This document shows, one piece after another, positions 1,902 through 30,626 of a stretch of DNA of 64,000 nt. The stretch is from a virus (lineage: Duplodnaviria > Caudoviricetes). Made by a program: the position numbers and the translations under genes. The stretch is from IMG/VR virus record IMGVR_UViG_3300027007_000012, positions 1-64,000 of that record; one strand, given 5' to 3'. Below the pieces are notes generated by a model that was not told the DNA's origin, did not search any database, and was given only the letters and a program-made list of their open reading frames with translations. Numbering within the stretch: the stretch's first letter is position 1; every line of letters starts with the position of its first letter.

Positions 1902-2433
1902 TCGACAGACACCGCGGTATAAACCGTATGCAGATATATGAATATCGCCGCTAATGGGCGGGGAGTGGGTCTGGCGTCTCGCTGTCTTCGAGCTCGTATG
2001 TCCGGAGGAGATCGCCACACGACGGACACGTTAACTTGAGGCCAGTCCAGTCGCCATCGGACCATTCGGCCTCGTATCGATCGAACGTTGCACCGCAGGT
2101 GTTACACTTCATGGCCGTTCCCGCGAACGTGCTCTACGGAGCGGCTTAAGTCTTCGCGCGCGCCCTGGATGCCACCAGTAACGTGCCGCTTTCGCGCCCC
2201 ACCTGTCCCGACATTCATCCTCAAAACAGGCGTATGTACGTACGTACGTGCCCATATGTACGTGCAGACCATGTGACTGCAACTCACCCACACGATAGAT
2301 TTAAGATCATCCAACGTATTGTTTCTGATACGTCAATGTCACTGACAGCGGGTTTCCCCGGCTATCCGCATACGACGTGTGACTGGCATGATAATATGCC
2401 AGAACGTGTTCAACAGTGATCACTCTCATTTGA

Positions 2434-2507
2434 GCCGGGAGGGCCCGCCTGGTGCGGGCGCGTGACTGTTAATCACGAGGTGCGAGGTTCGAGTCCTCGT
2501 CCTGGCG
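2434..2507 (+). tRNA. trnN: tRNA-Asn(GTT)
   Basis: Acceptor GCCGGGA/TCCTGGC, anticodon arm CGTGA-CTGTTAA-TCACG, T-arm CGAGG-TTCGAGT-CCTCG. Confidence 0.88.
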
Positions 2508-2528
2508 CCTGAGAGTGTCAGAATACCG

Positions 2529-2562
2529 ATACACTTAATATCGATACACGTCAAGTATAGGA
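2529..2562 (+). promoter_or_regulatory. Promoter upstream of tRNA array
   Basis: ACACTTAATATCGATACACGTCAAG, nearly identical to ACACTTAATATCTTAACACGTCAAG upstream of the ligase gene; TTAATA TATA-like core. Confidence 0.6.
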
Positions 2563-2590
2563 CATTCAAAAACATAAGAAACTAGACATG

Positions 2591-2665
2591 GGGCTTGTAG
2601 CTCAGCCAGGCCAGAGCAGTCGACTCCAAATCGACCGGCCGGGGGTTCGAATCCTTCCGGGCCCA
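2591..2665 (+). tRNA. trnW: tRNA-Trp(CCA), intronless
   Basis: Cloverleaf; anticodon arm GTCGA-CTCCAAA-TCGAC; T-loop TTCGAAT. Confidence 0.92.
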
Positions 2666-2760
2666 CTTTGGGACCACCTTGTAGGAAATCGCACGGTCCC
2701 GCTACAACGGGGTAGCCTGGGGAGGTGACACGGCGCGGGTCCCTCCCGCGTCCCCCTGCA

Positions 2761-2834
2761 TGGCGCATAGGTCAGTCAGGTAGACCACCTCGCTCACATC
2801 GAGGATGCCCCCGGTTCGAATCCGGGTGTGCCAA
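2761..2834 (+). tRNA. trnV: tRNA-Val(CAC)
   Basis: Acceptor TGGCGCA/TGTGCCA, anticodon arm CCTCG-CTCACAT-CGAGG, T-arm CCCGG-TTCGAAT-CCGGG. Confidence 0.9.
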
Positions 2835-2968
2835 TCCCCCAAAACCCCGGGCTCAGCCCGGACGGGGGTGTGCGGTCCTGCTCGAGAATCGCGAACGCCT
2901 GCGGACGAACGCGGTCCGTGGGAAGGCGCTAAGAGCCGATCGAGAAGGGGGAGCGATCCCCCATCCGA

Positions 2969-3042
2969 GTGCCCGTAGTTCAGCTCGGTAGAACGCTCGC
3001 TTTGCAAGTGAGAGGCCGCTGGTTCGAGCCCGGCCGGGTACA
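2969..3042 (+). tRNA. trnA: tRNA-Ala(TGC)
   Basis: Acceptor GTGCCCG/CGGGTAC, anticodon arm CTCGC-TTTGCAA-GTGAG, T-loop TTCGAGC. Confidence 0.88.
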
Positions 3043-3131
3043 TGCGACACGGTGATCGACCCCTGCGCTCCGGCGTACAGATCGACACATCGACAGCGCC
3101 CACGGTGGGAAGTACGTGACGCCCATGCGGT

Positions 3132-3206
3132 GGGTCGGTAGCTTAGCCTGCGTAAAGCGTTCGGCTTTTAACCGAATGACCGGGGGTTCGAATCCCTCCC
3201 GACCCG
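3132..3206 (+). tRNA. trnK: tRNA-Lys(TTT)
   Basis: Acceptor GGGTCGG/CCGACCC, anticodon arm TTCGG-CTTTTAA-CCGAA, T-loop TTCGAAT. Confidence 0.93.
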
Positions 3207-3327
3207 TGGGGCGGTTGGCCTCTGGCCGCTGAGCTCGGTAGTCCCGAACCACAAAAGAATCCCAGAGGACGTTGAGTGACCGATCACTCGCGAGGTCGGG
3301 CTGGCCACCCGACACACCACACGGTGT

Positions 3328-3400
3328 GGCTTCGTAGCTCAGTTGGTAGAGCCCTCGATTTGTAATCGAGCGGCCGGGAGTTCGATCCTCCCCGAAGCCT
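3328..3400 (+). tRNA. trnT: tRNA-Thr(TGT)
   Basis: Acceptor GGCTTCG/CGAAGCC, D-arm GCTC-AGTTGGTA-GAGC, anticodon arm CTCGA-TTTGTAA-TCGAG. Confidence 0.92.
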
Positions 3401-3421
3401 TCCGTTCAGTCCACCTCCAGA

Positions 3422-3487
3422 AGTCCCGCTGGCGAGAGATGCCTGACTTTCAATCAGGTGGCCGTCGGTTCGATTCCCTCCGGGATA
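3422..3487 (+). pseudogene. Degenerate tRNA-Glu(TTC)
   Basis: Intact anticodon arm CCTGA-CTTTCAA-TCAGG and T-loop TTCGATT, but truncated D-arm and mispaired T-stem. Confidence 0.65.
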
Positions 3488-3519
3488 ATCAGGGTGCGAC
3501 CAGCGCCCAGACACGACGT

Positions 3520-3594: not shown

Positions 3595-3652
3595 CTCCGT
3601 CAGGCAAAATAGCCGAACTACATAAGAGTTCGGGGATTTCGCTTGACACTGC

Positions 3653-4545: not shown

Positions 4546-4574
4546 ACACCGCACTGGATGCCACCAGCAGCGAT

Positions 4575-4800: not shown

Positions 4801-6348
4801 GACTTAACGGAGTTCAGCACGTACGGAGAGAGACTTGTAGGCGGCGCGGAACCGAAAGACCGCGTCATCATCGAGTGTCTCGACAAACTCGATCCGAGGA
4901 GTTCCGACTTCATGGGAGCAATCTCATTTCTGACACGAGAGCCCTTCGACGATATCGGCGTCGGGAAGACATCCCTGCGAGAGATCGCTGCTGAAACACT
5001 CGATACAGACGTCAGTACGCTCCGCGATCACGAGCGCGACTACGGCGACCTTCCCAGCGCGATCGGCCATGTGGCCGCCGAGACGAACCGCCTCGTCCCG
5101 AGAACGGATGTAAGTCTTGGCGACCTGTACCGGAGATGCCACCAGATACGTGACGCCACGGGAGACGAGGGTGGCCGACTGATCCGACAGGCCCTCTCGG
5201 ACTACAAGGAGCCCAAGTGGGTCGCACACGCGTTCCTCGGTAAGAAAGGGGTGAGCTTCGGCGTCGGCGAAAAATCCGTCGTCAGCATCCTCTGTAAGGA
5301 GCACGGCATCGATGACTCGCGACGGGCGCTGGCACTGAACCCCCGAGTGGTCGATCTGTGTGCGACAATCGCGAGTCCCGAGAGCTACCACAACCCGATC
5401 ATGCAACCACTCTGCGGGCGACCGTTCCTCCCCATGCTGGCGAAATCGAAGCCGATCCCGGAAGACCCACGGGCGGAGTGGATGATCCAGCCCAAGTACG
5501 ACGGGGCACGCATCCTCGTCCACTACAACACCGCCGACGACGGCATCCTCCGGGCGTTCAGTCGGAACGCGAACGACGTGACGAACAGCCTCCCCGAGCT
5601 GCGCGAGCTCGAGGATGTGATCACCGCCGAGGGACAGTACATCTTCGACGGGGAAGCGATCCCCTACAAGGACGGGGAGCGCCAGCCGTTCCAGCAAGTG
5701 ATGACCCGGTTTGGTCGCCAGGAGGATGTCGACGAGCAAGAGATCGACATCGAGTTCAAGTTCTTCGACCTGGTCTACGCGGAGAACGAGTGGCCAGCCT
5801 ACGACGGGGACGTGTCCAAGATGACGGCGGGCGGACGATACTTCCTGTTGTTCTGGCTATTCGCCCATGACCACACGGACTGGGTCGCACCGTCGTACAC
5901 ACCCATGCTCGACGAGGACCTCGTCAGTCACTACCAGGAGTTCCTGCGAGACGGCCTTGAAGGAGCGGTGGTCAAACGCGTCGACGCACCCTACGAGTTC
6001 AATCGGCGCTCACCACACTGGCGGAAGATGCTCCCGACGAAAGAGAACGTCGAGCTACGCGTCGTAGCCGTCCACGAAGGAGAGAACAGCAACGCCGGAA
6101 TGGTTGGCGGGATGGAACTGGAGACGGAAGATGGAACGCCCGTTGGCCGTGTTGGTGCCGGTATCGAAGACTACGACGGCATCAAATGGGAGGAGCGGGA
6201 CACGGTCGTCGACGAGATCGTCGAGGTATCCTGGCGCGAGCTCCAGGCCAACGACGACGGAACCTACGCGCTCCGATTCCCCAGCCTCGAAGCGTTCCGC
6301 GAAGACAAGGACGAGGCCGACACACTCGACAAACTCAAAACCCTGTGA
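4798..6348 (+). CDS. lig: ATP-dependent DNA ligase
   Basis: Motif I QPKYDG, FSRN, IFDGE, FDLVY, EGAVVK, WRKM; OB-fold LRFPS. Confidence 0.95.
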   Translation: MDLTEFSTYGERLVGGAEPKDRVIIECLDKLDPRSSDFMGAISFLTREPFDDIGVGKTSLREIAAETLDTDVSTLRDHERDYGDLPSAIGHVAAETNRLVPRTDVSLGDLYRRCHQIRDATGDEGGRLIRQALSDYKEPKWVAHAFLGKKGVSFGVGEKSVVSILCKEHGIDDSRRALALNPRVVDLCATIASPESYHNPIMQPLCGRPFLPMLAKSKPIPEDPRAEWMIQPKYDGARILVHYNTADDGILRAFSRNANDVTNSLPELRELEDVITAEGQYIFDGEAIPYKDGERQPFQQVMTRFGRQEDVDEQEIDIEFKFFDLVYAENEWPAYDGDVSKMTAGGRYFLLFWLFAHDHTDWVAPSYTPMLDEDLVSHYQEFLRDGLEGAVVKRVDAPYEFNRRSPHWRKMLPTKENVELRVVAVHEGENSNAGMVGGMELETEDGTPVGRVGAGIEDYDGIKWEERDTVVDEIVEVSWRELQANDDGTYALRFPSLEAFREDKDEADTLDKLKTL

Positions 6349-7564: not shown

Positions 7565-7846
7565 ATGAAGACAGAGAGACAACTACAGAGGATGTTAGCA
7601 AATCGGAGATGTGCGGGATTTGAACGTACGTCGGCTGACCCCGATCGGCGGCGTCATATCGAGTACAACCTACTTCGCCAGATTCTGGACCTTGACAGCG
7701 ACCAGGACGTGTGCCGTGAGTGCGCTACGATCTCGGACACCGACGCAACGTGGGATGACCCTGGTCTGTGCCCGGCGTGTTCCACTGGGGTGCAGCTCCG
7801 TATCAATGCCCACGCTGCTGGTGGCATCGATGTGGAGGGTGATTAA
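7565..7846 (+). CDS. Zinc-finger protein
   Basis: CREC ... CPAC; contains a reverse motif copy at 7818. Confidence 0.55.
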   Translation: MKTERQLQRMLANRRCAGFERTSADPDRRRHIEYNLLRQILDLDSDQDVCRECATISDTDATWDDPGLCPACSTGVQLRINAHAAGGIDVEGD

Positions 7847-13821: not shown

Positions 13822-16800
13822 ATGGCCTGGGACACCCTCGATTCATTCGAAGACCAGTCACTCTCTGAGTACGACGTTGGATCGACAGCAGCGTACGACA
13901 TTGTCTCGACCCAGGCGACCGACGGTACGTACGCACTCGAAGGGACAGACGGGTCGTCGTGGGCGGACCTCATGTCCACGTCGGGGCCGGAATCCATCCC
14001 GCACGGATCGACCTTCCGCGTCGACGTGTGGATCACCGACTCGAACGACTGTGCGATCCTCCGCTTTGGTGCGGCCGATTCGGGCAACTGGATCGGTGCC
14101 GGGTACAACGGGAACAACGGTGGCTGGCAAATATCGCGTGCTCTGGGCGGCGGGTGGTCACAGATCGGTTCTGGTGGTTTCTCGCCACCACTGGGTGAGT
14201 GGATTACGTTCGAGGTCGAGTGGGGCGTAGCTTCTGATGACGACGTTGTCATCCGCGCGTTCGATTCCAGCGAAACAGAGCTTAGTAGCGCGAGCGCGAC
14301 CGCCCCAAGCGACCTTCGGTCGAACGATGGGTTCGGCGTCGAATACACCTACCAGTACAGCGGTACTGGTCCAGTCTACTTCGACAATATCCGCATCGAA
14401 ACGACAGCGGACGAGGCGACGGTTGATGTCGGGTCCCTCTCACTGAGTGCTGTCGAACCCACGGCGACGTTGGATGCGACCGTGCCTGTGAGCACACTCT
14501 CCGGGACTGTTTCTACACCGTCTGTTTCGGCAACGGTGGGGGCAACGAGTACGTCGGCCGACACTGGTGTCCTCGACGTACGTGCACAGGATGCAAGTGG
14601 TGACACCCCAGGAACAACTGTAATAGCCGACGTGGGAACGCTCGCGTCGACAGCCCAGGACGCAGCCGCCAGTCCCGGCGGATTCACAACCAGTGCTGAT
14701 GTCGCCTCGGTCACCAGTGTCGCACATGATGTAGCAGTTACTGCTGGATCGACGAGCGCCACAGCCGCTGCTGGTGGCATCGCAGTGTCGGGTGTCGACA
14801 CGTCTGGGTCGAGCGGGGTAGTTATCGCGACATCGACGGTTGGCGGGACGGTCACTGCACTTGACCCCACCACTGAAGGAGCGGTAACGGCGACTATGGA
14901 GGCCGCTCCAATCTCCGTCTCGGCACCGTCGCCGACGACTGGGACGGCCTCGTCGATATTGACACAGACGATCACGTCGTCGGTCACAGCGACCGATGTA
15001 AGTGCGACCGCAGGTGGGACGGTCACAGCAACAACTGACCAGGGGACCATCGCGGCAACAGCCCTCGAACCGGTGATCGCGACTGGCGATACACCAACGG
15101 TCGTGCATGTCGGCGCGATCACTCTCTCGGCGCCGTCTGTCACAGCGAGCACTGGCGGTGTGTCTGCTACGGCGGGTGTTGGTGAGATCTCGGTCACTGG
15201 GTCTGATGTTTCGACCGGCGGCACCCGGACGATCACCGCAGAAACCGCCACGCAGACTGTGACGGTGCCCTCCCCGGATGTAGTCTCCGGTGAGAACTCA
15301 CTGTCGGCTGATACCGGGTCGGTCAGTGTTTCGGCATACAGCCCGTCGGCGTCGGCCGGGGCAACGACAGCCACTGGAGAGGTAGCAAGTATCTCTGTGT
15401 CCGGAGTTGACCTTAGTGCCTCCTCCGGCGGGTCGATTGTCTATACCGGGACCAAGAGCGCGACTGTCACCGCCCAGGACCCAACGGTGTCTGTCGGAGG
15501 GGCCACGGCGACCACCGACATCGGGGCTCTCGCGGTCTCCATCCCAACGCCAGGAGTCGGAAGTGGCGTCATAGCTGCGACATCAACCCTGAGTGGGACT
15601 GTCGCCGCCCAGGACCCCACAGCCGCAGTTGGCGGCGCATCGGTGACGGCGGACACCGGAATCATGTCTGTATCGGCCCCCGAGCCAGGTGCTGGCTCTG
15701 GTATCATCGCGGCCACGTCAACCGTCTCCGGCACGGTCACCGCACAGGACCCAACGGCCACGGGCACTGGGGCGGTTACCGTCGGTGCAGAAGTCGGGAC
15801 GATAGCAGTTGCTGGACAGGGCGTCGATGCGACCCCCGGAGAGACCGCTGTGACGCCGATTGTCGCGACCATTTCCGCTTCTGCGCCGGACCCCGCTGCG
15901 ACCTCATCCACCACGATCTCGGCCGATGTGGGGACGGTCACGGTCACGCCCATCGACCCCTCGATCACCGTCTCGTCTACAATCGATGCAGACGAAGGTG
16001 TGCTGACGGTCACGGCCACTGATGTGACCACACTCCTGTCCGACTCGACTGTCCTCGATACAGGGACAATCACTGTCGCGGCCCCCGAACCGACAGCGTC
16101 GGCCGGTAGCGTCACTGGAGCTGGTGAGACCGGAACGGTCACTGTGGCGGCCCCAGGTCCAACCGCGATAGCCGGCCCAGCGTCTGCAACGACCGGGGCG
16201 GCGACGGTCACGACGGCCGCCCCCGATGTGACGGCCACTGGCGGTCCTACCACCAGTACGGCCGAAACTGCGACGCTCGCGACGACCGCCCCGAGCCCGA
16301 GCGCGGCGGTGGGATACACGGTTGGTGCGGAGACCGGGGCGTTAACGACGAGCGCGCATGACCCGGTCGCGTTCGGAGACCGTGTCGCATCGGCAACGGT
16401 TGGCGAGCTGGCCGCCAGCGCCGCCGACCCGACGATCACCGGCGTAACGACTGTCACCGTCGACGAGGGGACACTCGCATCCACCGCGCCGGACCCCTCG
16501 GCCGTTCCCGGCGGTGTCGCGGGCTCTGTTGAAGTGGGGACACTCGCGACAGCGGCACAGGACGCCGGCCTCGTCCTCGGGACGACGACGATCACAACCG
16601 AGTACGGCGCACTCGCGGTCAGTGGCCAGGATGTTGCAGCGGCACCAGGTGGCGTTTCATCCACCGCCGACGCGGGCACGATTACGGCGATTGCCCCTGA
16701 CGCCGCCCTCACCCCTGGTGTCACACCCGTGACCACCGAGGTGGGGACTCTCGCCACCACGGTGCTCGACCTGGATGCAGCCGGCGGCCCGACGACCGGC

Positions 16801-17574: not shown

Positions 17575-17909
17575 TGACCAAAGAAAACCAAGACTTCGAG
17601 TTGCACAACGGCGAGATCAAAATCCCCCAGTTCACCGTCGACAAACCAGACGGGTCGACGAAAGACCTCACCGGGTACAAGGCCCGGTGGATAGCGATCG
17701 ACCCCAAAGACGACGAGATCGTGATCGACTTGCATACGGACACGGATAACGACATCACGATCCCCAACCCTGCTGGTGGTATCGTCGAGGTCAGGGTAGA
17801 TCTGACTGGAAGCTCCGAGCTGTACAACTCGTACCGTCACGAGCTCTACGTGATCGACACCTCCGGGGAGCCATCAGTCGTCGCTACGGGAGAAATGTTC
17901 GTGAAATAA
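17574..17909 (+). CDS. BppU-N-like Ig-fold tail/baseplate-associated protein
   Basis: DLTGY ... ITIPNPAGGIVEV ... YRHELYVID pattern; coupled to the fibre gene. Confidence 0.55.
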   Translation: MTKENQDFELHNGEIKIPQFTVDKPDGSTKDLTGYKARWIAIDPKDDEIVIDLHTDTDNDITIPNPAGGIVEVRVDLTGSSELYNSYRHELYVIDTSGEPSVVATGEMFVK

Positions 17910-18134
17910 CATCACCCCAGACGGTAGCCGACTTGTTCTCACACGGACCCTCTCGGCCGGTAACGGCCCGATACACACGGATTCACCCTGACCACATCGA
18001 TGCCACCAGCAGCGCCTGATAACCTAAGCTATCAGAATATTTAATACTGTTTAACGTATATCAAAGAATACACATACGGGAACGAAGTGTCGGATAGAAC
18101 AGCTTCCCGTGTATGGTTCGCACAATAGAGACAT

Positions 18135-20446: not shown

Positions 20447-20685
20447 GTTGGACCGACGAGATCCAGATTCGGGCGACGCTTCCCAACGGGGAAGTCTGGC
20501 AACTCAACTACGCCTGGGCGGCCCGACTGCTGGCCGAGGCGAAGTACCCAGATGAAGGAGACGACCACTTCGAGGAACGGCGCTACTACCTCGACAACCC
20601 GCAGGGGGCGGCCTGGGATCTCCCCAACCTCGTCGACTGGGAGGACATCAGGAGCGTCGGCGCGACTTCTCTGTCGATGCTGTGA
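20443..20685 (+). CDS. Hypothetical protein
   Basis: 80-aa acidic ORF overlapping the upstream stop. Confidence 0.55.
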   Translation: MSWTDEIQIRATLPNGEVWQLNYAWAARLLAEAKYPDEGDDHFEERRYYLDNPQGAAWDLPNLVDWEDIRSVGATSLSML

Positions 20686-20947
20686 CGATGCTCAGGCTCT
20701 CGCCCTCGCATACAGAACGCACTGACACATTACGTACGGACGCCTGTCCCGACGTAACGGCCGTTTCGCATTTCCTCGGTGGGCGGTAGTATCGCCACAG
20801 AGTTGGCGGGCGGACGGGCGGGCGAGACGGCCGTCACTGGCGACACGAACGAGGCGGTGGCGGGGGCGGTCCGCGGGGGCGGACGAACTCCCGCCCGCGG
20901 AGCGGTAGGCGAGCATTTATAAAGGAGTGTCATCATATCAAACATGT

Positions 20948-21118
20948 ATGGATTTGGAAGTTGCATTCACCGACGAGCGGAATAACATCCAAACACAGGA
21001 ATGTTCCACCATTTCAGAGGGTGAAAAGGGTCTCATGTTAATTGAGAATCCAGGCAAGGATATTGTCGGTTACATCCCATATGAGAATTTAGAACGGGTC
21101 ACTCCGAAAGAGCCATAA
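20948..21118 (+). CDS. Small hypothetical protein
   Basis: TTTATAAA TATA box at about 20915; 56 aa from ATG 20948. Confidence 0.55.
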   Translation: MDLEVAFTDERNNIQTQECSTISEGEKGLMLIENPGKDIVGYIPYENLERVTPKEP

Positions 21119-21373
21119 TTTGTACCCTGTTGTCAAAAATAAATTATAGGACCCGAAAACGGGGGTGGGTCCGCTCATATATGCATTCTTTTCTTTCTTT
21201 GAATGCATCTCCGACAGAAAATATTTAAACTTCAAACCTTAATAATTCAACATGGTTGATGACCCAATTGGGTGGATTCTCGGATTGCTTTCAGCCGCCC
21301 TCATCCTTGGTGTCGGTGGCTGGTTGTTACTGTGGCTGTCAGCACACATGTGAGGGTTGCTCAGAGGATATCG

Positions 21374-21616
21374 ATGAGTGAACAGAGTAACGACTGGACT
21401 CCGGAGCAGATAATCGACCTGCTCGCCGAACGCGATGGAAACCCGATCGTTCTGACCAACCACCGGGAGATCCCATACGTCTTGGCCGAGTGGAAGTACA
21501 GCGATAACCATCGCGAGAAGTCCAACTTTCTCATTTTCGACCACCACTGGCTGATTCAAATCAAACACGATATAATTTTTTGCGATCGAGTTGTGTATCT
21601 GACCTTCCGAGAGTAG
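21374..21616 (+). CDS. Small hypothetical protein
   Basis: GAGG RBS, ATG 21374; AT-rich. Confidence 0.45.
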   Translation: MSEQSNDWTPEQIIDLLAERDGNPIVLTNHREIPYVLAEWKYSDNHREKSNFLIFDHHWLIQIKHDIIFCDRVVYLTFRE

Positions 21617-21638
21617 TTACCAACAAGATATATCCTTC

Positions 21639-24600
21639 ATGGCGTCATGGTACCCTCCTATGGTCTCTGACTTTCTTGGATCGAGGACTGGCCGTCCGTG
21701 GACTTCCGACCGGACGGGCGCTGACTTCGAGTTCTATCAGGGAGAGGGCTCGAGCGCGCTGGAGATAGTCGTCGTCGAGCACGATGAACGGCCGACCAAG
21801 GAGTTCCTCCAACGAACCTATACCGACCGCCGGGGTGGACGGGTTAATCCGATTCTCGTGGTCGCGCTCTACGATGACAAGGTCGGCCTGTGTGGGCCGA
21901 GTGGCGAAGACCCGCCCGTATTCCGTGATGTTGATCGCGGCCAAGCCGAGCGTGTCTGTGACGCCGCCCTGAAAAAGCCAGATAGACACGTTGCTCAGGC
22001 TTTTCTCACCAACACGCTCCCACAGCTGGACGAGGAACTGGCCGGGCTACGGAACCAGGGCCTTCTGTCGACGCACGAACTCAGGGTTGGGGTGCCCGAC
22101 CGCGACGATTGGGAGGAGGCTACTGAACGTGCTCAACAAGCCCTCACGGACGATCCGCGGGACTTGGTGGAAGGGCTGAACTATGAGATTGATAGGCTCA
22201 CGGACCAGAGCTACGTCCTCAAGGACACCAGTGACGGACACGAGCGAGCGGTTGCCATGTTCCTCCAAGAGGACGAGTCGTTCGACCACAAACAGGACCG
22301 CTTCGTCAACAAGTCGCCGGTAGCGTACGCGCTCAACGAAGCCGACAAGCGAAATCTGGACTACGTGATCGGGAGTAGCGGTGATACACTTCGACTCTAC
22401 ACGACAAACCCCGAAGCTGGATTCGGCTCACGCGGACGCACCGACACATACGTCGAAGTAAATACAAATCTTCTGGCCGACGAGAAAGCGGCGTATCTCT
22501 GGTTATTGTTCTCGGCGAATGCGCTCCGCGATGACGGAGCCCTTCACCAGATTATGGAGGACTCGAAGGAGTACGCCGCCGACCTCGGAGGGCGTCTCCG
22601 GAATCGCATCTACGACGACGTCATTCCCGACCTCGCGGAGGCCATCGCGGAGGCACGCGACATCGACGACCCGACGAAGGAGCAACTCGACCAGACATAC
22701 GAGATGGCGCTCTTTCTCCTCTATCGTCTCCTGTTTATCGCCTACGCTGAAGACGAAGAGTTCCTCCCGCGCCGACGGAACGGTCGCTATGATAGACATT
22801 CGCTAAAACAGAAGGCTCACGATCTTCACGAACTCGTACAGGAGGGCGGTGAGTTTGACGACTCTTTCTACGACCACTGGGATGACGTGATGCGGCTCTC
22901 GCGTGCTATCCACCACGGGCATGAAGAAATGGGTCTCCCCGCCTACGAGGGCCGAATTCTCTCCGAGGATGAAGATGTCTCCGAGGCGGGTGCACGACTC
23001 GCGGATATCAGACTGAATAACGCTGACTTTGGCCCTGTGCTGTTCCGGTTGCTCGTTGACGAAACGGAGGATGGGTATCAAGGGCCGGTCGACTTCCGAA
23101 ACATCGGCGTCCGCGAGTTCGGTGTCATCTATGAAGGGCTTCTGGAGTCCGAGCTCTCTGTTGCTGAACAGCCGTTGACTACAGACGAAGACGGACACTA
23201 CCAGCCGGTCGACAGTGGTGGACAGCAAACGCTGGGAGAGGACGACGAGGATGTAGTCGTTAATGAGGGAGAAGTATACCTCCACGGTCAGTCAGGGGAA
23301 CGGAAGGCCACTGGCACCTACTACACCAAGACGAAGTTTGTTGAGCACCTCTTGGATAACTCGCTTGATCCCGCATTAGACGACCATTTGGAACGTATTG
23401 ATCGGATTCGTGAGGAGGAAGGTGAAAATGCCGCCGCTGAAGCCTTCTTTGACATCCGGGTCTCGGACATCGCAATGGGTTCTGGACATTTTCTCGTGGG
23501 CGCGGTGGATCGGGTTGAATCGAAGCTCTATACGTACCTTACAGAAAACCCTCTTACACCAGTCCAAGAGGAACTTGACAATCTGGAAGACGCGGCACTC
23601 AGTGCGTTTGATGACGAAGAGTATGCACCAAATATTGAACGCGGGCAACTTCTTCGACGCCAAGTTGCACGACGCTGTATCTATGGAGCGGATTTGAATC
23701 CTCTTGCAACCGAACTTGCTCGACTCTCCATCTGGGTACACACATTTGTCCCCGGGCTTCCGCTCACCTTCCTTGATTATAACCTCGTGACGGGTGATTC
23801 GTTGGCCGGTATCGGAACGTTGGATGAGGTCACAGAATCGCTCGACATTGAACAATCGTCGCTGGGGATGTTTGCCGGTGGCCAGAGCGTGATGAACGAA
23901 ATCCGTGAGGACATCGGACAACTTGGTGACTTTGCGGACGCGAGTGCGGAACAGGTTCAGGAGGCGCGTGCAACTCGTGCTAAGATCGAGGCGAAATTAG
24001 AGGAAGTTCGTGCTCGGTTCGATGTACTGGCCGCATCACGGATTGATGATGATATCGACACTGACCCTGTATCCGACACTGGTATTGACATAACCGAGAA
24101 AGATTGCTACGAACAGGCTCAAGAGCTACTGGAGTCGACTGATCCACTCCACTTCCCCGCCGCATTCCCTGAGGTCTTTGACGGCGACAACCCCGGGTTT
24201 GATGTTATCCTTGGCAATCCTCCATGGGAAGAAGCGACTTTGGAAGAAGACGAGTTCTGGATGCGCTACGAGCCCGGATTTCAGGCAAAGTCACAGGCTG
24301 AACAGGAGAAGCTCAAAGAAAAACTCCGAGAGGAGCGTCCTGATCTTGTCGAACAATATGAAAGCGAATTAGCTGAGCAAGACAGGCGTAGGGCGCTGTT
24401 GCGGAATGGGCCATTCCCAGGGATGGGTACCGGCGATCCTGACACCTACAAAGCGTTTTCTTGGAGATTCTGGTCCCTTACAAAAACAGAAGGCCGGTCC
24501 GGTGTTGTTCTTCCTCGAAGCGTCTTCAGTGCGGCTGGTTCTGAAGAAATTAGACGCGAACTCCTCGATAAGAGTATCATTCGCGATCTCACATTCGTCG

Positions 24601-25802
24601 TCAATAATCGGAACTGGGTCTTCTCCGCCGTTCATCCTCAATACACGATAGCATTGTTGAGCTTTGAAAAGTCGGAACCCACAGATGATGATGTTCTCTC
24701 AATCCGAGGACCATTCCCCAGTGCTGAGGCTTTTGAAGAAGGACATCAAGGCCCCCCTCACACCTTCTCAATTGATAGAGCGAAGAATTGGACCGGAACA
24801 GCCGCTTTCCCGTTGCTACCGCCAACTCCTGAGGCTGGGGAAGTTTTCGAGACATTGGCCGAAGCTCCGCCTCTCGACAGAGATGAGCCCGGCGAATGGC
24901 GTGCAAGACCTAATACGGAGTTGCATGCCACTAATGATAAAAAGAAAGATGATGGCACCGAGCTGATGAAGTTCTTTGATGAGGGTGAGACACCGCCTGA
25001 TGATTACTGGCCAATTTTCAAAGGGGGGTCTTTTGACACTTGGAATCCTGATACTGGCGAAAGATATGCTTGGGCCGACCCAGAGATAATGCTCGACCAT
25101 CTTCAAGAAAGCCGGGAAAGCTCTTACCAATACGCTGGAAAACGGTCCGCGTTCTATGAGATGCCCGAGGAGTGGGTGTATGACAAGAGCACGCTATCAT
25201 GCTTTTCTCCACGGGTTGTATTTCGAGATGTAACAAGGGCAACGGACACGCGGACCGTTCGCTCAGCTCTCATCCCACCAGAGACCTTCTTAACAAACAA
25301 AGCGCCCTATTTCCTATGGCCACAGGGTGATGAGCGTGATGAAGCATATCTTCTTGGCGTCCTATGTTCGATTCCTCTCGACTGGTATGCCAGACGGTTC
25401 GTGGAAACTACACTCAACTACCACATCCTAAATGGCTTCCCAATCCCACGACAAGGGCAAGATAGTGCCCTTCGTCAACGTGTAGTCGAACTCTCTGGCC
25501 GACTCGCCGCTGTAGATGAACGATATGCTGAGTGGGCGGATTCGGTCGGAGTAGAATATGGATCACTCGATGAGGATACGAAACAGGAGAAAATCTACGA
25601 ACTGGATGCGGTCGTCGCTCATCTCTATGGGCTGACCCGAGACCATGTCGAGGTGATCTTCGAGACCTTCCATGATGGATGGGATCACGAGGAACGATTA
25701 GAGCGCGTTCTCGACTACTACGCGAGTTGGGCGGATCGACTGGACCTCGACCACACCGACCGCGAGACGGAACAAGCGGCTGGAACCAGAAACGATGACT
25801 GA
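21639..25802 (+). CDS. Eco57I/type IIG-like N6-adenine DNA methyltransferase with target-recognition domain (DrmMI-like)
   Basis: GTYYT, motif I DIAMGSGHFL, YGADLN, motif IV GNPPW; C-terminal TRD; 1387 aa. Confidence 0.9.
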   Translation: MASWYPPMVSDFLGSRTGRPWTSDRTGADFEFYQGEGSSALEIVVVEHDERPTKEFLQRTYTDRRGGRVNPILVVALYDDKVGLCGPSGEDPPVFRDVDRGQAERVCDAALKKPDRHVAQAFLTNTLPQLDEELAGLRNQGLLSTHELRVGVPDRDDWEEATERAQQALTDDPRDLVEGLNYEIDRLTDQSYVLKDTSDGHERAVAMFLQEDESFDHKQDRFVNKSPVAYALNEADKRNLDYVIGSSGDTLRLYTTNPEAGFGSRGRTDTYVEVNTNLLADEKAAYLWLLFSANALRDDGALHQIMEDSKEYAADLGGRLRNRIYDDVIPDLAEAIAEARDIDDPTKEQLDQTYEMALFLLYRLLFIAYAEDEEFLPRRRNGRYDRHSLKQKAHDLHELVQEGGEFDDSFYDHWDDVMRLSRAIHHGHEEMGLPAYEGRILSEDEDVSEAGARLADIRLNNADFGPVLFRLLVDETEDGYQGPVDFRNIGVREFGVIYEGLLESELSVAEQPLTTDEDGHYQPVDSGGQQTLGEDDEDVVVNEGEVYLHGQSGERKATGTYYTKTKFVEHLLDNSLDPALDDHLERIDRIREEEGENAAAEAFFDIRVSDIAMGSGHFLVGAVDRVESKLYTYLTENPLTPVQEELDNLEDAALSAFDDEEYAPNIERGQLLRRQVARRCIYGADLNPLATELARLSIWVHTFVPGLPLTFLDYNLVTGDSLAGIGTLDEVTESLDIEQSSLGMFAGGQSVMNEIREDIGQLGDFADASAEQVQEARATRAKIEAKLEEVRARFDVLAASRIDDDIDTDPVSDTGIDITEKDCYEQAQELLESTDPLHFPAAFPEVFDGDNPGFDVILGNPPWEEATLEEDEFWMRYEPGFQAKSQAEQEKLKEKLREERPDLVEQYESELAEQDRRRALLRNGPFPGMGTGDPDTYKAFSWRFWSLTKTEGRSGVVLPRSVFSAAGSEEIRRELLDKSIIRDLTFVVNNRNWVFSAVHPQYTIALLSFEKSEPTDDDVLSIRGPFPSAEAFEEGHQGPPHTFSIDRAKNWTGTAAFPLLPPTPEAGEVFETLAEAPPLDRDEPGEWRARPNTELHATNDKKKDDGTELMKFFDEGETPPDDYWPIFKGGSFDTWNPDTGERYAWADPEIMLDHLQESRESSYQYAGKRSAFYEMPEEWVYDKSTLSCFSPRVVFRDVTRATDTRTVRSALIPPETFLTNKAPYFLWPQGDERDEAYLLGVLCSIPLDWYARRFVETTLNYHILNGFPIPRQGQDSALRQRVVELSGRLAAVDERYAEWADSVGVEYGSLDEDTKQEKIYELDAVVAHLYGLTRDHVEVIFETFHDGWDHEERLERVLDYYASWADRLDLDHTDRETEQAAGTRNDD

Positions 25803-28800
25803 ACAGCCACAAGTCGTCGACAACCGGGACGGCAATACCCTTGCCGCCGCTATCAACGCCTACCTCGGGGACTTGGACGAACGGCTGGCCGATGACCCGG
25901 ACCTCGACATCGCCACTGGCTACTTCAATCCGAGAGGATACTTTTCGGTCGCTGAGGGACTGGAACATGTTGATCAGGTCAGGCTTCTTATTGGTGCCCA
26001 GCCCGATCAGGAGGGCAAGGAACGCTGGCGACACCCAGAGGAACCACAAGGGGAGGCATACGAACGCAAGCGCATCGAGGAGGCCCTTCAGACACTGGAT
26101 TTCAATCTCAAGCGCGACAGAGACTTGCTGGGCTTCTCGCGTAACGTCGATCAGGGCCTTCAGGAACTTGTCGACTTCCTCCGAAGTGACCGCGTCGAAG
26201 TTCGCCGCCACGAAGACAGCTTTGTCCACGGGAAGGCGTACCTGTTCTCGGACAGCCAGGGCGTGCTCGCGGGTTCCTCGAACTTCACCGGGGCGGGCCT
26301 AAACTCGAACTTGGAGCTGAATCTCGGAGCATACGATCCCCACGTAACCGGGGAAGTCAACAACTGGTTCGAAGATCTCTGGGAAGCCAGCGACCCATTC
26401 GATCTCGCCAGCCTCTACGAAGAACGATTCGAACCTTATGACCCCCATCTCATCTACCTCCGGGTGCTCTACGAGCGGTACGGTGACGAACTGGAGGAAG
26501 AACGAGAGGACGACGGGGGTGCCATCAACCTCACCAATTTCCAACAGGACAGCGTTAGGAGAGCGAATCGATTCCTCGACAAACACAACGGTGTCATCAT
26601 CGCCGATGAGGTTGGTCTTGGGAAGACGTATATCGGAGGGAAGCTCCTTGAACAGTACGTTCAGGAGAACCGACAGCGTGCACTTGTCGTCGCACCAGCG
26701 TACCTCCGAGACGGAATGTGGGAACAAAAGCCGGCCGAGTGGGGCGTACAATTCGAGACGGTCTCCTACGCTCAACTCCGAAACGACAGCCAACTCGGCG
26801 GGGACGCCAACAATCTCAGTCTCCCCGTCGACGAGTATCAGTTGGTCGTTATCGACGAGGCTCACGCGTTCCGCAATCCTGGAACCCAGCAATCCCACGC
26901 TCTCCGGACACTCCTCCGGGGTGATCCACCGAAGGACGTGGTCATGCTCACAGCCACACCGGTCAACAACTCGCTCTGGGACCTGTACTACCTCCTGAAT
27001 TACTTCGTCCGGAACGACGCGGCCTTCGCCAACGAAGGTATCCGGTCACTCCGGGACCAGTTCAAGGAAGCCCAGGCGGAGGATCCGTCGGACCTCAGTC
27101 CCGACATGCTGTTCGATGTCCTCGACCAGACGACCGTACGTCGAACACGCCGGTTCATCAAGAACCATTATGAGAACGCCACGATGCCCGACGGCGACGA
27201 CGGAGAGGTTCGAATTAATTTCCCTGATCCGAAGCCCCAACGCGTCGACTACACCTTTACGGACACATTTGGTGACGACTATTTCCTCGATGTCGCGGAG
27301 GGGCTGGCGGCCGGTGATCGGGACGAAGCCGAGCTCACGCTGGCTCGCTATCGTCCATCCTACTATCTGGAGGGCGAGGAGGATGCCTCCGAACTCTCAC
27401 TGGTCGGCCTGTTGCGGACGGGCCTCCTCAAGCGGTTCGAGTCGTCGAGCTACGCTTTCAAGAACACCCTCGACGGGATGATTTCGCAAAACCGTGTCGC
27501 GCTCCAACTTATCGAGGAAGGATATTTCCCGGAGACGAACGCGATTGAGGAGTGGGTTGAGACGGATAGTGACGAAGGGATGGAAGAACTCCTCGATGAG
27601 GCGAGCGACGGAAATATTTCGCTGGCGGCGGCCGATGCCGATCCCGCCGAGCTTCGGGCGGACTTGGAGTACGACATAGAGATACTGGAACGGTGGCGCG
27701 ACGGAGCCCAGGACGTCAGTCGAGACGATGACGAGAAGCTCCATGCGCTCCGTGATACGCTTGAGGATATCGTTGAGACGGCGAGAGAGGACGCTGAGGC
27801 CCGACAAATTTCGGACGAGGAGATCGAGGCGGCCTTCCGTCAGAACCGGAAGGTGCTGTTGTTCTCCTATTACGAGGACACCGTCGATTGGATTTACGAA
27901 TACCTGGAGTCCGTCGTCTCCGAGGACGAAGACTTGTCGTGTTACGAGGGCCGTATTGCCGCTGTGTCCGGCGACGGCTCAAAGTACGGCGTCACACGAG
28001 AGGAAGCCGTCCACGGGTTTGCACCAAACTCAGGTGACGCCCCGCCGGATGCCACGGACGAGTTTGACATTCTAATCACGACGGATGTCCTGGGTCAGGG
28101 TGTCAACCTCCAAGAAGCACGTAACGTCATTAACTACGACCTCCCCTGGAATCCGATGCGCGTTGTCCAGCGGAACGGTCGTATCGACCGCGTCAATTCC
28201 CCGCATTCCGAAATTTATCCGTTCTCGTTCTTCCCTGAGGATCGACTGGACGATCTTCTTGAACTCGAACACCGAGTTCGGGAGAAGCTCACCCAAGCGG
28301 CACGTTCTATCGGTGTGAGTGGCGGTGTGATACCCGATATGGAGACCCTCAATCAGAACTTCGCTGAGAAGGTCGAAGAAATCGACTCGATCCAACAAGA
28401 GGAATCTGACTTCTATGAACAAGGTGGGGCTGAAGCGGCGGCCTATTCCGGCGAGGAGTACCGCCAGGAACTCCGCGAGGGACTTGAAGACCGCGAGGAT
28501 CAGATCACATCGCTTCCGTGGGCCGCTGGGTCGGGGTTCCGTGGCGACGATCCGGGCTACTTCTTTTGTGCGCGAGTGGGCGACGAGGTGTTCATGCGGT
28601 TTGTTCCTCACGAGATGGAAGGGGATGACGAACTGGTTCAGGATACGCTCACCTGTCTGAAGCGTATCGAATGTTCTCGTGACACTGAACGGGCCCTCCC
28701 CGATGGAATGCGAGACCAAATCTATGGTGCATGGGAGACGGCACAGGAAGACATCTATAGTCAATGGCAAGAACAGACTGATCCGCTGAATGTCCAGCCT

Positions 28801-29163
28801 GACATCCGGCGGTTGTTCCGTGAAGTCGGCCAACACCTCCGTGACCACTGGCCCGACGACAAGACCCAGGAGGAGCTCCAGGAGACGGTCGAAGCAGTTG
28901 AGGCTCCCTGGGGTCGCCGCTACGAACGTGAACTCCGGGAGATCTACGAAGACGAGTCGCTGGGCCCGATCGAGAAGTCCCGCGAGCTCGTCGAGAAAGT
29001 CGATGATCTGGGCCTCCAACCGTTCGAGGCACCCGACCCGCTTCCACCGATCGAGGAGGACGAAGTGAAGTTGGTCTGCTGGATGATCGTCGCTCCTGGC
29101 GAAGGCGCGAGTGAGCGTAATGATCGCCCGGGACTGATGTCCCAAGTGACGTTCGATACGTAA
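25795..29163 (+). CDS. PLD-nuclease domain fused to an SNF2-family helicase
   Basis: HGKAYLFSD ... GSSNFT (HKD-type), ADEVGLGKT, DEAH, LTATPVNN, QRNGRIDR; 8-nt overlap with the MTase gene. Confidence 0.9.
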   Translation: MTEQPQVVDNRDGNTLAAAINAYLGDLDERLADDPDLDIATGYFNPRGYFSVAEGLEHVDQVRLLIGAQPDQEGKERWRHPEEPQGEAYERKRIEEALQTLDFNLKRDRDLLGFSRNVDQGLQELVDFLRSDRVEVRRHEDSFVHGKAYLFSDSQGVLAGSSNFTGAGLNSNLELNLGAYDPHVTGEVNNWFEDLWEASDPFDLASLYEERFEPYDPHLIYLRVLYERYGDELEEEREDDGGAINLTNFQQDSVRRANRFLDKHNGVIIADEVGLGKTYIGGKLLEQYVQENRQRALVVAPAYLRDGMWEQKPAEWGVQFETVSYAQLRNDSQLGGDANNLSLPVDEYQLVVIDEAHAFRNPGTQQSHALRTLLRGDPPKDVVMLTATPVNNSLWDLYYLLNYFVRNDAAFANEGIRSLRDQFKEAQAEDPSDLSPDMLFDVLDQTTVRRTRRFIKNHYENATMPDGDDGEVRINFPDPKPQRVDYTFTDTFGDDYFLDVAEGLAAGDRDEAELTLARYRPSYYLEGEEDASELSLVGLLRTGLLKRFESSSYAFKNTLDGMISQNRVALQLIEEGYFPETNAIEEWVETDSDEGMEELLDEASDGNISLAAADADPAELRADLEYDIEILERWRDGAQDVSRDDDEKLHALRDTLEDIVETAREDAEARQISDEEIEAAFRQNRKVLLFSYYEDTVDWIYEYLESVVSEDEDLSCYEGRIAAVSGDGSKYGVTREEAVHGFAPNSGDAPPDATDEFDILITTDVLGQGVNLQEARNVINYDLPWNPMRVVQRNGRIDRVNSPHSEIYPFSFFPEDRLDDLLELEHRVREKLTQAARSIGVSGGVIPDMETLNQNFAEKVEEIDSIQQEESDFYEQGGAEAAAYSGEEYRQELREGLEDREDQITSLPWAAGSGFRGDDPGYFFCARVGDEVFMRFVPHEMEGDDELVQDTLTCLKRIECSRDTERALPDGMRDQIYGAWETAQEDIYSQWQEQTDPLNVQPDIRRLFREVGQHLRDHWPDDKTQEELQETVEAVEAPWGRRYERELREIYEDESLGPIEKSRELVEKVDDLGLQPFEAPDPLPPIEEDEVKLVCWMIVAPGEGASERNDRPGLMSQVTFDT

Positions 29164-29206
29164 CACCTTCAATTAGCGAGTACAGTTGTTTTAGACGAGC
29201 GTCATA

Positions 29207-30172
29207 ATGGTTGATGATACATCCCGGAATACCGCCGATTTGCCGTATGAATCTGGTGATCTCGTTCATATTCGGCGGTCAGCCCCACAAGAGGTTCCAG
29301 AGTTATATCACCACAAACACGCCTGTGAGGTGGTCTCTACCTACAAAGACTACTCAAGATCTGGTGACGAAAGTTCCGATGATGAACCCCTCAACAAGTA
29401 TACCTACAGACTCAGCCCGGTCACGAAAGATACCACGCTCTCCACTCTATATTACCACTCCCACCTTGTTCCCTCCCCACGAGGGTACAAGCATATCGAC
29501 GCACTCCTTGGTGAGCACTCCGCCGATGACCCACCCGAGTGGGAACGTGATCTCGGCAAATTGATGCGCGAGGATTTAGAGACGATAAACACCTGTCTCT
29601 CTGTTGTCAACGATACGGACCCCACGAAAGACTGGATGCGCGAAATTCGAAAAGGAAACCTCGACCGCACTAACTCTGTCTTCGCAGAAATGCTACTCCT
29701 CTACCACCTCCGTATAGAACTGGAACACAGTTCAGTCCAGATGAACGTTCGGTTCGACGAGAATGGGAAGGATGTCGATTTCCGAGTCATAACGAACGAC
29801 TGGGATGTGTGGATCGAGGTCTACAAACCGGATTATCTTAATCAAATTCCCGAGGGTGGTGGGTGGTTCTCGCCTGAAGCAACTGGAACGTCTACTGGAA
29901 ACAAGGTCCGTGAAAAATTCGACGGTGACCGGGAACGGTTCCCTGACGATGCAGTTGTTGTCCTCGCTGTTTACCTCGTGGAAAATATAACTCAGGGATT
30001 CCAGTTGGAACGATGGTTTGATCAAGACTACTTTGATGTTGGCGATTATTGCGATGCCCTATTAACATTCACCCATCTGACATTCCCTACTGAATTTCAG
30101 CATCGTCCCATAACACCCGCAGGCGAGGACAGTATGGGTTTCTTTGATTCGGTATTCGGCAATGACTCATGA
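29207..30172 (+). CDS. Putative PD-(D/E)xK-like nuclease with an N-terminal SH3-like domain
   Basis: AEM ... KDVDFRV ... WIEVYK arrangement; N-terminus LPYESGDLVHI. Confidence 0.45.
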   Translation: MVDDTSRNTADLPYESGDLVHIRRSAPQEVPELYHHKHACEVVSTYKDYSRSGDESSDDEPLNKYTYRLSPVTKDTTLSTLYYHSHLVPSPRGYKHIDALLGEHSADDPPEWERDLGKLMREDLETINTCLSVVNDTDPTKDWMREIRKGNLDRTNSVFAEMLLLYHLRIELEHSSVQMNVRFDENGKDVDFRVITNDWDVWIEVYKPDYLNQIPEGGGWFSPEATGTSTGNKVREKFDGDRERFPDDAVVVLAVYLVENITQGFQLERWFDQDYFDVGDYCDALLTFTHLTFPTEFQHRPITPAGEDSMGFFDSVFGNDS

Positions 30173-30332
30173 CCGACGTATTTCGAACACCCAACAAAAC
30201 CTTTGTGGACTATCTATGACAGGCTCTGTTCGCGGAGGACAAGAGTAAGTTACGCTGACGGACTCGATGTCACCAGAAACGTTGTACGTACACACTTTCG
30301 ACGTTTAAGTGGGTAGCGGCCCATATAGGACT

Positions 30333-30626
30333 ATGATTCGCATCGAGTACGATGAGGCGTACCCATTCCTGATGGGGTATCTCACACGTAGTTTCGAGAA
30401 AGAGATCGACGGACAGCGATGTGGCCCCGAGACGATCATGTCTGCGATGAACGCCGAGGGTCGCGAACTCATAATGACCGACCATCAGGCGAAGTGTGTG
30501 ATAGCGTTGCTTGAAGACGGGTACGACGTCGAGGAGTTGGACAACACGAAGGAGGCGGTCGAGAAGTTAGAACAGTTGAAAGATGATCTGAACACCGCAC
30601 TGGATGCCACCAGCAGCGGAGAGTAG
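30333..30626 (+). CDS. Hypothetical protein
   Basis: ATG 30333 after a TTTAAG promoter; ends LNTALDATSSGE, which is encoded by the dispersed motif. Confidence 0.6.
   Translation: MIRIEYDEAYPFLMGYLTRSFEKEIDGQRCGPETIMSAMNAEGRELIMTDHQAKCVIALLEDGYDVEELDNTKEAVEKLEQLKDDLNTALDATSSGE

Follow-up and report, generated by a model that had tools for sequence, protein, structure and literature searches.

The 64,000-nt stretch analysed here (the window, positions 1 to 64,000 of the IMG/VR virus record IMGVR_UViG_3300027007_000012, Caudoviricetes) was found to carry many copies of one short word, CTGGTGGCAT, or its complement ATGCCACCAG, dispersed over both strands, within genes and between them. The window is the first 64 kb of a record of 88,656 bp (G000 where it has to be told apart), and the copies were compared with those of two relatives. 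The first (REL) is a collinear viral contig of 89,618 bp with about 80% nucleotide identity and a family-B DNA polymerase (PolB) that is 93% identical; the second (HBP) is a circular plasmid, 148,857 bp long, from Halobaculum halophilum Gai3-2 (plasmid unnamed3, NZ_CP058532.1), whose PolB is 77% identical. The copies are a selected recognition signal at the DNA level, and this signal is that of the virus and not of the host.

Dinucleotide shuffles predict 0.04 exact copies of CTGGTGGCAT for the window; it contains 21, and the whole record 27. No other 10-mer or 12-mer is as frequent in the genome. All eleven positions quoted in a first-pass annotation of the window carry ATGCCACCAG or CTGGTGGCAT on the strands that it gave. 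Alignment of the copies extended the consensus to CG-Y-T-G-CTGGTGGCAT-C, with a core of about 14 nt, CG-Y-T-N-S-TGGTGG-Y-A (the conserved core was also put at 14-16 nt), which grows to about 26 nt in the non-coding copies by addition of a weaker tail, SAGTGCGGTG. The motif is asymmetric, GT-rich and not palindromic. The E. coli octamer GCTGGTGG is present within 18 of the 27 copies, the G that completes it being the least conserved position of the motif. A weak rise in A+T (0.50 against about 0.42) was seen 16-25 nt to one side of the G+C-rich core, and neither repeats nor target duplications recur in the flanks of the aligned copies. Folding of the copies, as RNA or as single-stranded DNA, was not indicated on either strand (mean z -0.7 to +0.1), and the Rfam scan disclosed nine tRNAs only and no family matching the motif; a structured RNA, a D-arm-like hairpin or a tRNA-like 3' end (GCCACCA) was rejected for want of a fold, of a complementary upstream arm and of an Rfam match. 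A 15-mer scan of viral contigs gave single chance matches only, and no description of this motif was found in the literature.

The host does not use this word. The 14-mer pattern CGYTNSTGGTGGYA occurs 0-3 times per genome in 401 genomes of the class Halobacteria, which does not exceed the reversed control; the sole genome with ten matches is that of the Halobaculum host, where all ten lie on the 149-kb prophage replicon and none in the other 4.15 Mb. A host-derived motif was thus ruled out by the 401 genomes together with the host of the related prophage. This absence favours a virus-encoded reader, and it means that the motif could distinguish viral from host DNA.

Comparison with the relatives disclosed that the places are kept and the spelling is not. 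Twenty of the 27 copies can be aligned to REL across the motif, and REL reads CTGGTGGTA at 19 of these 20; it contains only one CTGGTGGCAT. Counted over the genomes, REL has 41 CTGGTGGTA and 1 CTGGTGGCA, and this virus has 29 CTGGTGGCA and 5 CTGGTGGTA. HBP carries 36 TGGTGGCAT, mostly GTGGTGGCATG(TGAG), in which the CG located five and six bases upstream is retained, and several of its copies stand at places homologous to those of this virus. The dialect-swapped versions of the motif 26-mer are CTGGTGGCATC and CTGGTGGTAG. A second viral contig found in the search for more dialects proved to be the same virus as REL. Further out, a 4.6-kb contig with a 68% identical portal still has TGGTGGCAT, a chromosomal PolB remnant has kept two or three copies, and a contig with a 61% identical portal showed no motif enrichment.

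Copies within well-supported genes are read as AAGGI, RCHQ, MPPAA or DAT, on either strand and in at least four frames. Where possible the switch of dialect is synonymous (GGC to GGT); elsewhere it alters the protein, from Ile to Met at two sites and from Met to Leu in a portal-like protein. A DpdA-like protein reads R-C-H-Q here and Q-Y-H-Q in REL (Cys to Tyr), a ribonucleotide reductase P-D-A-T here and D-T-T-T in REL (Asp-Ala to Thr-Thr), and a sugar-nucleotide synthase GGIDVE here and GGSEMS in REL, while the copy at 5136 in the ligase gene is a gain in this virus that came with several residue changes. Selection is on the nucleic acid and overrides the protein, and the data call for a reader that is sequence-specific and not the same in viruses so closely related. 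Conserved positions, divergent spelling and enzyme residues that follow it are unusually direct evidence that such a reader co-evolves with the motif. A protein-coding repeat (a module like those of nonribosomal peptide synthetases, or a conserved peptide) was discarded on account of the two strands, the four or more frames and the copies in spacers, and the start codon of a mini open reading frame (ORF), ATG CCA CCA, was discarded since REL has TAC there.

The first-pass annotation had described a period of about 3.3 kb that held regardless of strand, had taken it for a maximum-distance constraint on a translocating or looping protein, and had explained a gap of 12.6 kb as one period plus a defence island. 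The period did not survive re-examination. The copy at 5136-5145 had been overlooked, so that the quoted gap of 3,260 bp is in fact 578 + 2,682 bp and the run is broken (the true left-end gaps are 2389, 578, 2682, 3535, 3418 and 3229 bp). With strands pooled, the 27 copies of the 88.6-kb record are spaced as in random placement (coefficient of variation, CV, 0.82, P = 0.19; Kolmogorov-Smirnov test against the exponential, p = 0.33), and 38% of random placements (20% when the window alone is considered) have a largest gap no shorter than 12.6 kb. The value of 3.3 kb is the mean density only (88.6 kb / 27), and the lesson is that the apparent period was this mean plus one overlooked copy. It is correct that no exact copy lies between 18009 and 30604 and that 2,982 bp of this gap remain without the island of 9,622 bp, yet that this remainder resembles one period is coincidental and follows from the mean. 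The close pairs on opposite strands (48146/48343 and 53195/53506) are both real, and the ceiling of about 5.8 kb on gaps after 30 kb holds within the window, where none exceeds 5,836 bp, but not beyond it, where gaps of 6,290 and 6,781 bp were found.

Partial support for a distance constraint did emerge once the strands were separated, in this virus and in REL, although not with strands pooled in this virus and not in HBP. The 17 minus-strand copies of this virus have gaps mostly of 2.4-7.2 kb (CV 0.54, P = 0.005; CV 0.42, P = 0.0001 with the island removed), and their even spacing was upheld against a null of 17 random gene ends (P = 0.005). REL gave the same picture on its minus strand (25 copies, CV 0.53, P = 0.0005) and on its plus strand (16 copies, CV 0.60, P = 0.02), and its pooled copies have an unusually small largest gap (5.6 kb, P = 0.01). 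Lesser regularity with pooled strands is expected if each orientation is read separately, and the same-strand evenness would suit an enzyme that translocates and reads one strand. Strand ratios are 17:10, 25:16 and 24:12 in this virus (17 being the minus strand), REL and HBP, and polarity does not reverse anywhere along the relative that is complete and circular; copies of the two orientations are intermingled, runs tests being non-significant in all three genomes, so that no change of orientation at a single, dif-like terminus was seen. The closest two copies are at least 196 bp apart in all three genomes, and among pairs closer than 400 bp 12 of 13 are on opposite strands (several of these pairs are homologous between the three genomes and not independent). 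One such pair, divergent and 377 bp apart (contig 75289/75666), lies within the DpdA gene and is kept in all three genomes.

The long motif-free gap is held for the most part by a cassette without DNA homology in either relative (Table 1), and here the first-pass annotation, which had proposed a recent insertion, was borne out. Homology with REL stops at 20648 and restarts at 30271, REL having an unrelated 7.1 kb in between; the G+C content at third codon positions (GC3) is below that of the neighbours in two of the three large ORFs of the island (0.57 and 0.52), the ORF for a protein with HKD and SNF2 domains having 0.68; and an exact search for extra copies within the island returned none. 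Degenerate copies scoring above 12 bits were likewise absent between 18016 and 30264, where 3.3-4.1 would be expected in the island (P = 0.02-0.04). It had also been anticipated that a relative lacking the island would show a spacing of about 3.3 kb across the junction: in HBP, which has no island at this place, the copies do continue across it, at a spacing of 0.5-2.5 kb and not of about 3.3 kb. In use, the motif is a mark of native viral DNA, and a stretch without it points to a recent insertion, the Type IIG cassette being an example. At the same locus REL encodes, on the minus strand (REL 28929-32447), a different Eco57I/MmeI-like methyltransferase-nuclease of 1172 aa, and the differing restriction-modification (RM) genes mark this as a variable defence locus and a hot spot of RM exchange. 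Two further segments lack counterparts in the relatives. Contig 67741-70742, missing in REL, has ORFs of 385 and 467 aa with low GC3 (0.54-0.56) and no motif copy, lies inside the 6,290-bp gap and is probably another recent insertion; an ORF of 482 aa at 63374-64822, spanning the window end, is absent from both relatives.

In relation to genes the copies are placed with little regard for coding context. About 40% are within coding sequence (12 of 28, 18 of 43 and 21 of 36 in G000, REL and HBP), and about one third point against the genes, nearly all of which are on the plus strand. Six copies lie 11-21 nt past a stop codon, and several precede strong TATA-like boxes (TTTAATATC; GAAAACTGGTATAT in HBP) that follow 24-200 nt later. 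Of the intergenic copies, about half occupy spacers of 30-45 nt that separate co-oriented genes and are followed by no promoter (4558, 48343, 53195, 55656). Given the variable promoter distance and the promoterless spacers, the motif is neither a core promoter nor an efficient terminator. It does not behave as a set of upstream sites oriented with their genes, many copies being coding or opposed, and no TATA box or TFB recognition element (BRE) stands at a fixed distance, the TATA-like boxes being separate. A sigma-54-like promoter (TGGCAT-N5-...) was set aside for its wrong spacing by eye and because the virus is archaeal. The REL spelling GGTGGTAGTGAG agrees at 9 of 12 positions with the ops element bound by RfaH, GGCGGTAGnnTG; the copies are mostly on the template strand in spacers, and the likeness was taken as chance.

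Asymmetry, GT-richness, the presence of both orientations, indifference to coding context and per-strand regularity are best fitted by a polar signal for a moving enzyme. The copies are therefore read here, tentatively and with some reserve, as what may be a strand-oriented, Chi-like marker of the virus's own DNA that a virus-encoded DNA-tracking enzyme would read. Such an enzyme would recognise the motif while moving along DNA, as RecBCD recognises Chi or FtsK the FtsK-orienting polar sequences (KOPS), and with a copy per strand roughly every 4-5 kb it would soon meet one in whichever direction it moved. The reader protein and its signal would change in concert, so that every virus lineage would come to spell the word in its own way, and recently acquired DNA, such as the 9.6-kb RM cassette, would not yet have copies, which would leave the 12.6-kb gap. 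That the reader is a translocating enzyme of the virus, which enzyme this would be, and whether the outcome would be attenuation of a nuclease, recombination or something else, are points that we infer. A wider proposal is more doubtful, namely that large haloarchaeal viruses and plasmid-prophages have private Chi-like polar signals, words of about 14 nt that would tell self from host and from competing relatives in co-evolved dialects. As one relative is a plasmid of a cultured strain, H. halophilum Gai3-2, the reader and the function are open to experiment.

Several observations weigh against a polar marker read by a tracking enzyme. No reader protein was identified, the candidates being the UvrD-like helicase, the HNH endonuclease, an HTH_10 protein, the small terminase TerS and the GHKL ATPase. 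A search for a helicase-nuclease of the RecBCD, AddAB or AdnAB type found only a UvrD-like helicase of superfamily 1 (SF1) with no nuclease domain, in a scan of about 30 ORFs that took in a minority of the small ORFs, on a record that covers about 60% of the ~150-kb genome; this helicase is the only conserved candidate motor, and with 61% identity between the relatives it is more diverged than most of its neighbours. The PD-(D/E)XK nuclease annotated on the Halobaculum element is in a segment that this record lacks. Known Chi sites are of 5-8 nt, as compared with the 14-16-nt core found here, and no Chi-like site is known from Archaea. HBP shows no evenness of same-strand spacing (CV 0.84-0.91), and since this virus and REL share most sites, their even spacing counts as one observation and not two. 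Finally, when the regions were read by eye, 11 of the 13 copies judged intergenic in G000 had ATGCCACCAG in the sense of the flanking genes; the cruder automatic class of intergenic and edge copies has a sense bias of 9:7 in G000, 19:6 in REL and 11:4 in HBP. Reading at the DNA level accounts for this bias only indirectly, as it could reflect avoidance of G-rich, Shine-Dalgarno-like, GUG-containing RNA.

The same bias speaks for punctuation of transcription, by which each copy would be the binding site of a virus-specific factor, or a signal in the RNA or the non-template strand, that marks the ends of transcription units as a polar roadblock, pause, processing site or operator. This is unlikely. 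Sense copies would then act on the transcripts of genes and antisense copies within genes on counter-transcripts. The copies just past stop codons and those followed by TATA-like boxes agree with it, and the even spacing of about 5 kb on the same strand could mirror the length of transcription units. The motif itself, however, contains no AT-rich TATA box or BRE and the A+T rise beside it is weak, the distance to the next promoter varies, an efficient terminator in the promoterless spacers would silence the downstream gene, and four sense copies are within essential-looking genes (those for ligase, portal-like protein, DpdA and ribonucleotide reductase), besides the coding and opposed copies already counted. 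It is similarly improbable that a site-specific enzyme of the virus marks each copy, either with a strand-specific nick or gap or by base exchange of the DpdA kind. A long, asymmetric, position-fixed motif with lineage-dependent spelling is what an endonuclease site would look like, and an HNH endonuclease homologue is present in all three genomes (window 42088-42594; 79% and 74% identity). A DpdA-family DNA transglycosylase is also encoded (contig 74588-75817; Pfam PF23859, E = 1e-20), and from this gene the viral DNA probably carries 7-deazaguanine bases, but phage DpdA enzymes replace much of the total G, within short contexts, and are not known to act on 14-mers. Neither variant explains the even spacing. 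A precedent for the nick exists in HRPV-3, whose genome has 27 motif-linked single-strand interruptions with a polarity that follows transcription (PMC3384331); the nicks of T5 and phiKMV-like phages, on the other hand, are few and confined to one strand (PMC3384331), as opposed to 27-41 copies on both strands here.

Two further explanations are less likely again. The copies could organise or package the genome, as places where a virus protein (the small terminase, a GHKL/MORC-like ATPase or one like ParB) would load or nucleate to condense or loop the DNA or to encapsidate viral in preference to host DNA, and this appears distinctly improbable. The copies are genome-wide and extend over the structural module of the Halobaculum element, a motif absent from the host could tell viral DNA apart, one copy stands between the small and large terminase genes and another just upstream of the conserved GHKL-ATPase gene, and the small largest gap of the pooled REL copies would suit such a role. 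Yet headful packaging needs one pac site and not dozens, the site is non-palindromic, unlike parS and most dimer-bound sites, it is kept in this record and in REL despite an integrase and no ParA, and its regularity is stronger per strand than pooled, which is not predicted for an orientation-blind binder of double-stranded DNA. That the copies have no present function, being scars of a mobile mini-element, of gene conversion or of mutational bias that are passively carried, is hardly credible. A weak excess of copies near the homology breakpoints between this virus and REL (7 of 38 within 100 bp, 3-4 being expected, P = 0.03-0.08) and the motif copy that adjoins the right edge of the island in both genomes speak for it; passive sequence, however, would not switch spelling at 19 of 20 alignable positions, force residue changes in conserved enzymes, persist in four reading frames or be evenly spaced per strand, and the copies have neither flanking repeats nor target duplications in common. 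This explanation is already largely refuted by the spelling switch and the residue changes.

Table 1 Features of the window in order of position, with motif copies, near-copies and the genes of the inserted cassette.
Feature	Position	Strand	Evidence or state in relatives
Motif copy, intergenic, between leftward Zn-ribbon ORF and tRNA array	2169-2178	-	REL homologue CTGGTGGTA; homologous copy in HBP at 26455
Motif copy, short spacer between two small Zn-ribbon ORFs	4558-4567	-	exact
Motif copy within ATP-dependent DNA ligase gene	5136-5145	-	this virus only; different peptide there in REL and HBP
Motif copy, 3' end of small ORF, frame AAGGI	7818-7827	+	REL GGT GGT ATG, Ile to Met
Motif copy 21 nt past PolB stop codon	11353-11362	-	exact
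Motif copy within 1250-aa ORF, frame AAGGI	14771-14780	+	exact
Near-copy CTGGTGGTAT	17767-17784	+	15.2 bits
Motif copy, intergenic, ~30 nt upstream of TATA-like TTTAATAC box of UvrD-like helicase gene	18000-18009	-	exact
Motif-free inserted cassette (defence island), 9,622 bp	20649-30270		no homologous DNA in REL or HBP
Type IIG restriction enzyme-methyltransferase gene, 1387 aa, GC3 0.57	21639-25802	+	PADLOC REase_MTase_IIG, E = 3.8e-258, full length; Pfam Eco57I, N6_Mtase
HKD(PLD)-SNF2 helicase gene, 1122 aa	25795-29163	+	PADLOC 'HKD+Snf2', E = 9e-59, DrmD-like matches; Pfam PLDc_2, SNF2-rel_dom, Helicase_C
ORF of 321 aa, GC3 0.52	29207-30172	+	no known family
One-mismatch copy CTGGTGACAT, 4 bp from island right edge	30265-30282	-	REL: exact copy 3 bp from its own edge
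Motif copy, 3' end of 105-aa ORF	30604-30613	-	exact
Near-copy, HBP spelling GTGGTGGCAT	31797-31814	+	22.7 bits
Motif copy, intergenic, ~33 nt upstream of TTTAATATC box of GHKL-ATPase gene	36440-36449	-	exact
Motif copy	39368-39377	-	exact
Motif copy within mini tRNA-like element (40288-40337)	40297-40306	+	exact
Motif copy	44459-44468	-	exact
Motif copy	45895-45904	+	exact
Motif copy, first of convergent pair, 197 bp apart	48146-48155	+	exact
Motif copy, second of convergent pair with 48146	48343-48352	-	exact
Motif copy filling most of 36-nt spacer between co-oriented genes	53195-53204	-	exact
Motif copy 5 nt past stop codon, divergent pair with 53195	53506-53515	+	exact
Motif copy in spacer between small and large terminase genes, followed by GTAC-rich palindrome	55656-55665	-	exact
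Near-copy CTGGTGGCAA within intein-bearing terminase gene	56771-56788	+	19.4 bits
Motif copy within portal-like gene, frame MPPAA	60367-60376	-	REL CTA CCA CCA, Met to Leu
Motif copy	61753-61762	+	exact
Motif copy within NDP-sugar synthase-like gene, frame AAGGI	62985-62994	+	REL GGSEMS there

The genes of the window include those for PolB, an ATP-dependent ligase, a UvrD-like helicase, an intein-split terminase large subunit, nine tRNAs and a tyrosine integrase. PolB is 33% identical to that of HF1-like haloviruses and 55% to cellular haloarchaeal PolB, and the identical PolB is also recorded on a contig of 154,791 bp; the portal-like protein had no match among isolated phages. HBP carries a full tailed-virus gene set with ParA/ParB, and after its homologous region a structural module of about 48 kb that is absent from this record. 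We conclude that the record covers about 60% of a haloarchaeal tailed virus or plasmid-prophage of ~150 kb. The integrase (window 795-1901) is 98% identical in REL, where it opens the record, and its presence in these two, as against ParA/ParB and plasmid life in the Halobaculum relative, points to different modes of lysogeny in the group. The terminase large-subunit gene (window 55732-58491) has an intein with a LAGLIDADG domain (about residues 113-480), which is absent from REL and HBP, as both align to its flanks only. An ORF of 1356 aa (contig 82041-86111) matches a Halobaculum gene annotated as adenosylcobalamin-dependent ribonucleotide reductase, and about 1.07 kb of it (contig 83371-84441), missing in REL, looks like a second intein.

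Other recurrent elements were noticed beside the motif. A strongly conserved TATA-like box, (A/C)ATTTAATATC, recurs upstream of genes (window 18040, 36485, 4775 and 53530 (minus strand); contig 65610), and a second box type, GAAAACTGGTATAT, has 5 occurrences in this virus and 9 in the Halobaculum element. GTAC-rich palindromes (e.g. GCGTATGTACGTACATACGC...CCCATATGTACGT) form a second repeat family, found 5-60 nt after several motif copies (window 2238-2275, 30645-30690 and 55668-55705; contig 65190-65230), and ACGTACGTAC occurs 25 times in the Halobaculum element. Mini tRNA-like elements, which fold with an acceptor-like stem and a T-arm and have no anticodon arm, are located at window 32581-32624, 38251-38297, 40288-40337, 54136-54183 and 52103-52171 and at contig 71806-71850; a T-arm-like element follows the motif copy at contig 71781 and ends in CCACCAGCG.

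Among known systems of dispersed sites, those bound by ParB (parS) differ from this motif, which is asymmetric and dispersed and occurs in this record and REL without a ParA homologue, and KOPS read by FtsK differ by their switch of orientation at a single terminus, of which there is none here. Interruptions of the HRPV-3, T5 and phiKMV-like kind share with it dispersed strand-specific motifs at fixed positions of a viral genome, but that of HRPV-3 is a GCCCA 5-mer in an 8.8-kb genome, and the present motif is a 14-26-mer with 27-41 copies on both strands. The promoter sets of phages (T7/T3/SP6, T4 late) and the repeats of halovirus HF2 resemble it in having dozens of near-identical asymmetric sites at conserved positions, with a spelling that changes together with the reader. 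The intergenic repeats of HF2, conserved in position and orientation, carry promoters (PMC8707807). In contrast to these sets, about 40% of the present copies are coding, about a third are against the genes, and there is no TATA box or BRE, the promoters being separate at variable distance.

Likenesses are also found in the DNA uptake sequences (DUS) of Neisseria and the uptake signal sequences (USS) of Pasteurellaceae, with cores of 10-12 nt and weaker flanks, on both strands, in genes with preferred frames and in spacers. They too have lineage dialects, matched here by the three spellings CTGGTGGCAT, CTGGTGGTA and GTGGTGGCATG in three related genomes, and they are missing from recently acquired DNA, so that gaps flag islands. 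DUS and USS nevertheless saturate the chromosome of the competent bacterium whose uptake machinery reads them. The present motif saturates a viral genome and is missing from that of the host, its density is about three times lower, and as far as the analysis went no gene for competence or for a receptor takes part. Chi, read by RecBCD or AddAB, differs in that the present motif is on an archaeal virus and absent from the host chromosome, has a core of 14-16 nt and not 5-8, and is accompanied, among the ORFs scanned, by a UvrD-like helicase and no helicase-nuclease of the RecB/AddA type. For recombination stimulated near the copies, the one hint is their weak excess at mosaic breakpoints given above. 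Bacterial chromosomes have oriented words of this genome-wide kind, Chi, DUS/USS and KOPS among them, and no report of one in an archaeal virus was found in the literature. If a private polar signal is true, neither Archaea nor any virus would have furnished a self-recognition signal of this sort before, and motif-free gaps would serve as a clock for horizontally acquired cassettes. Like Chi sites, the copies are short, asymmetric, GT-rich oligomers that would be read in one orientation, are present in genes and in spacers about every 3-5 kb and are spelled according to lineage, and they are strongly over-represented and oriented as Chi sites are, in the virus only and not in host genomes.

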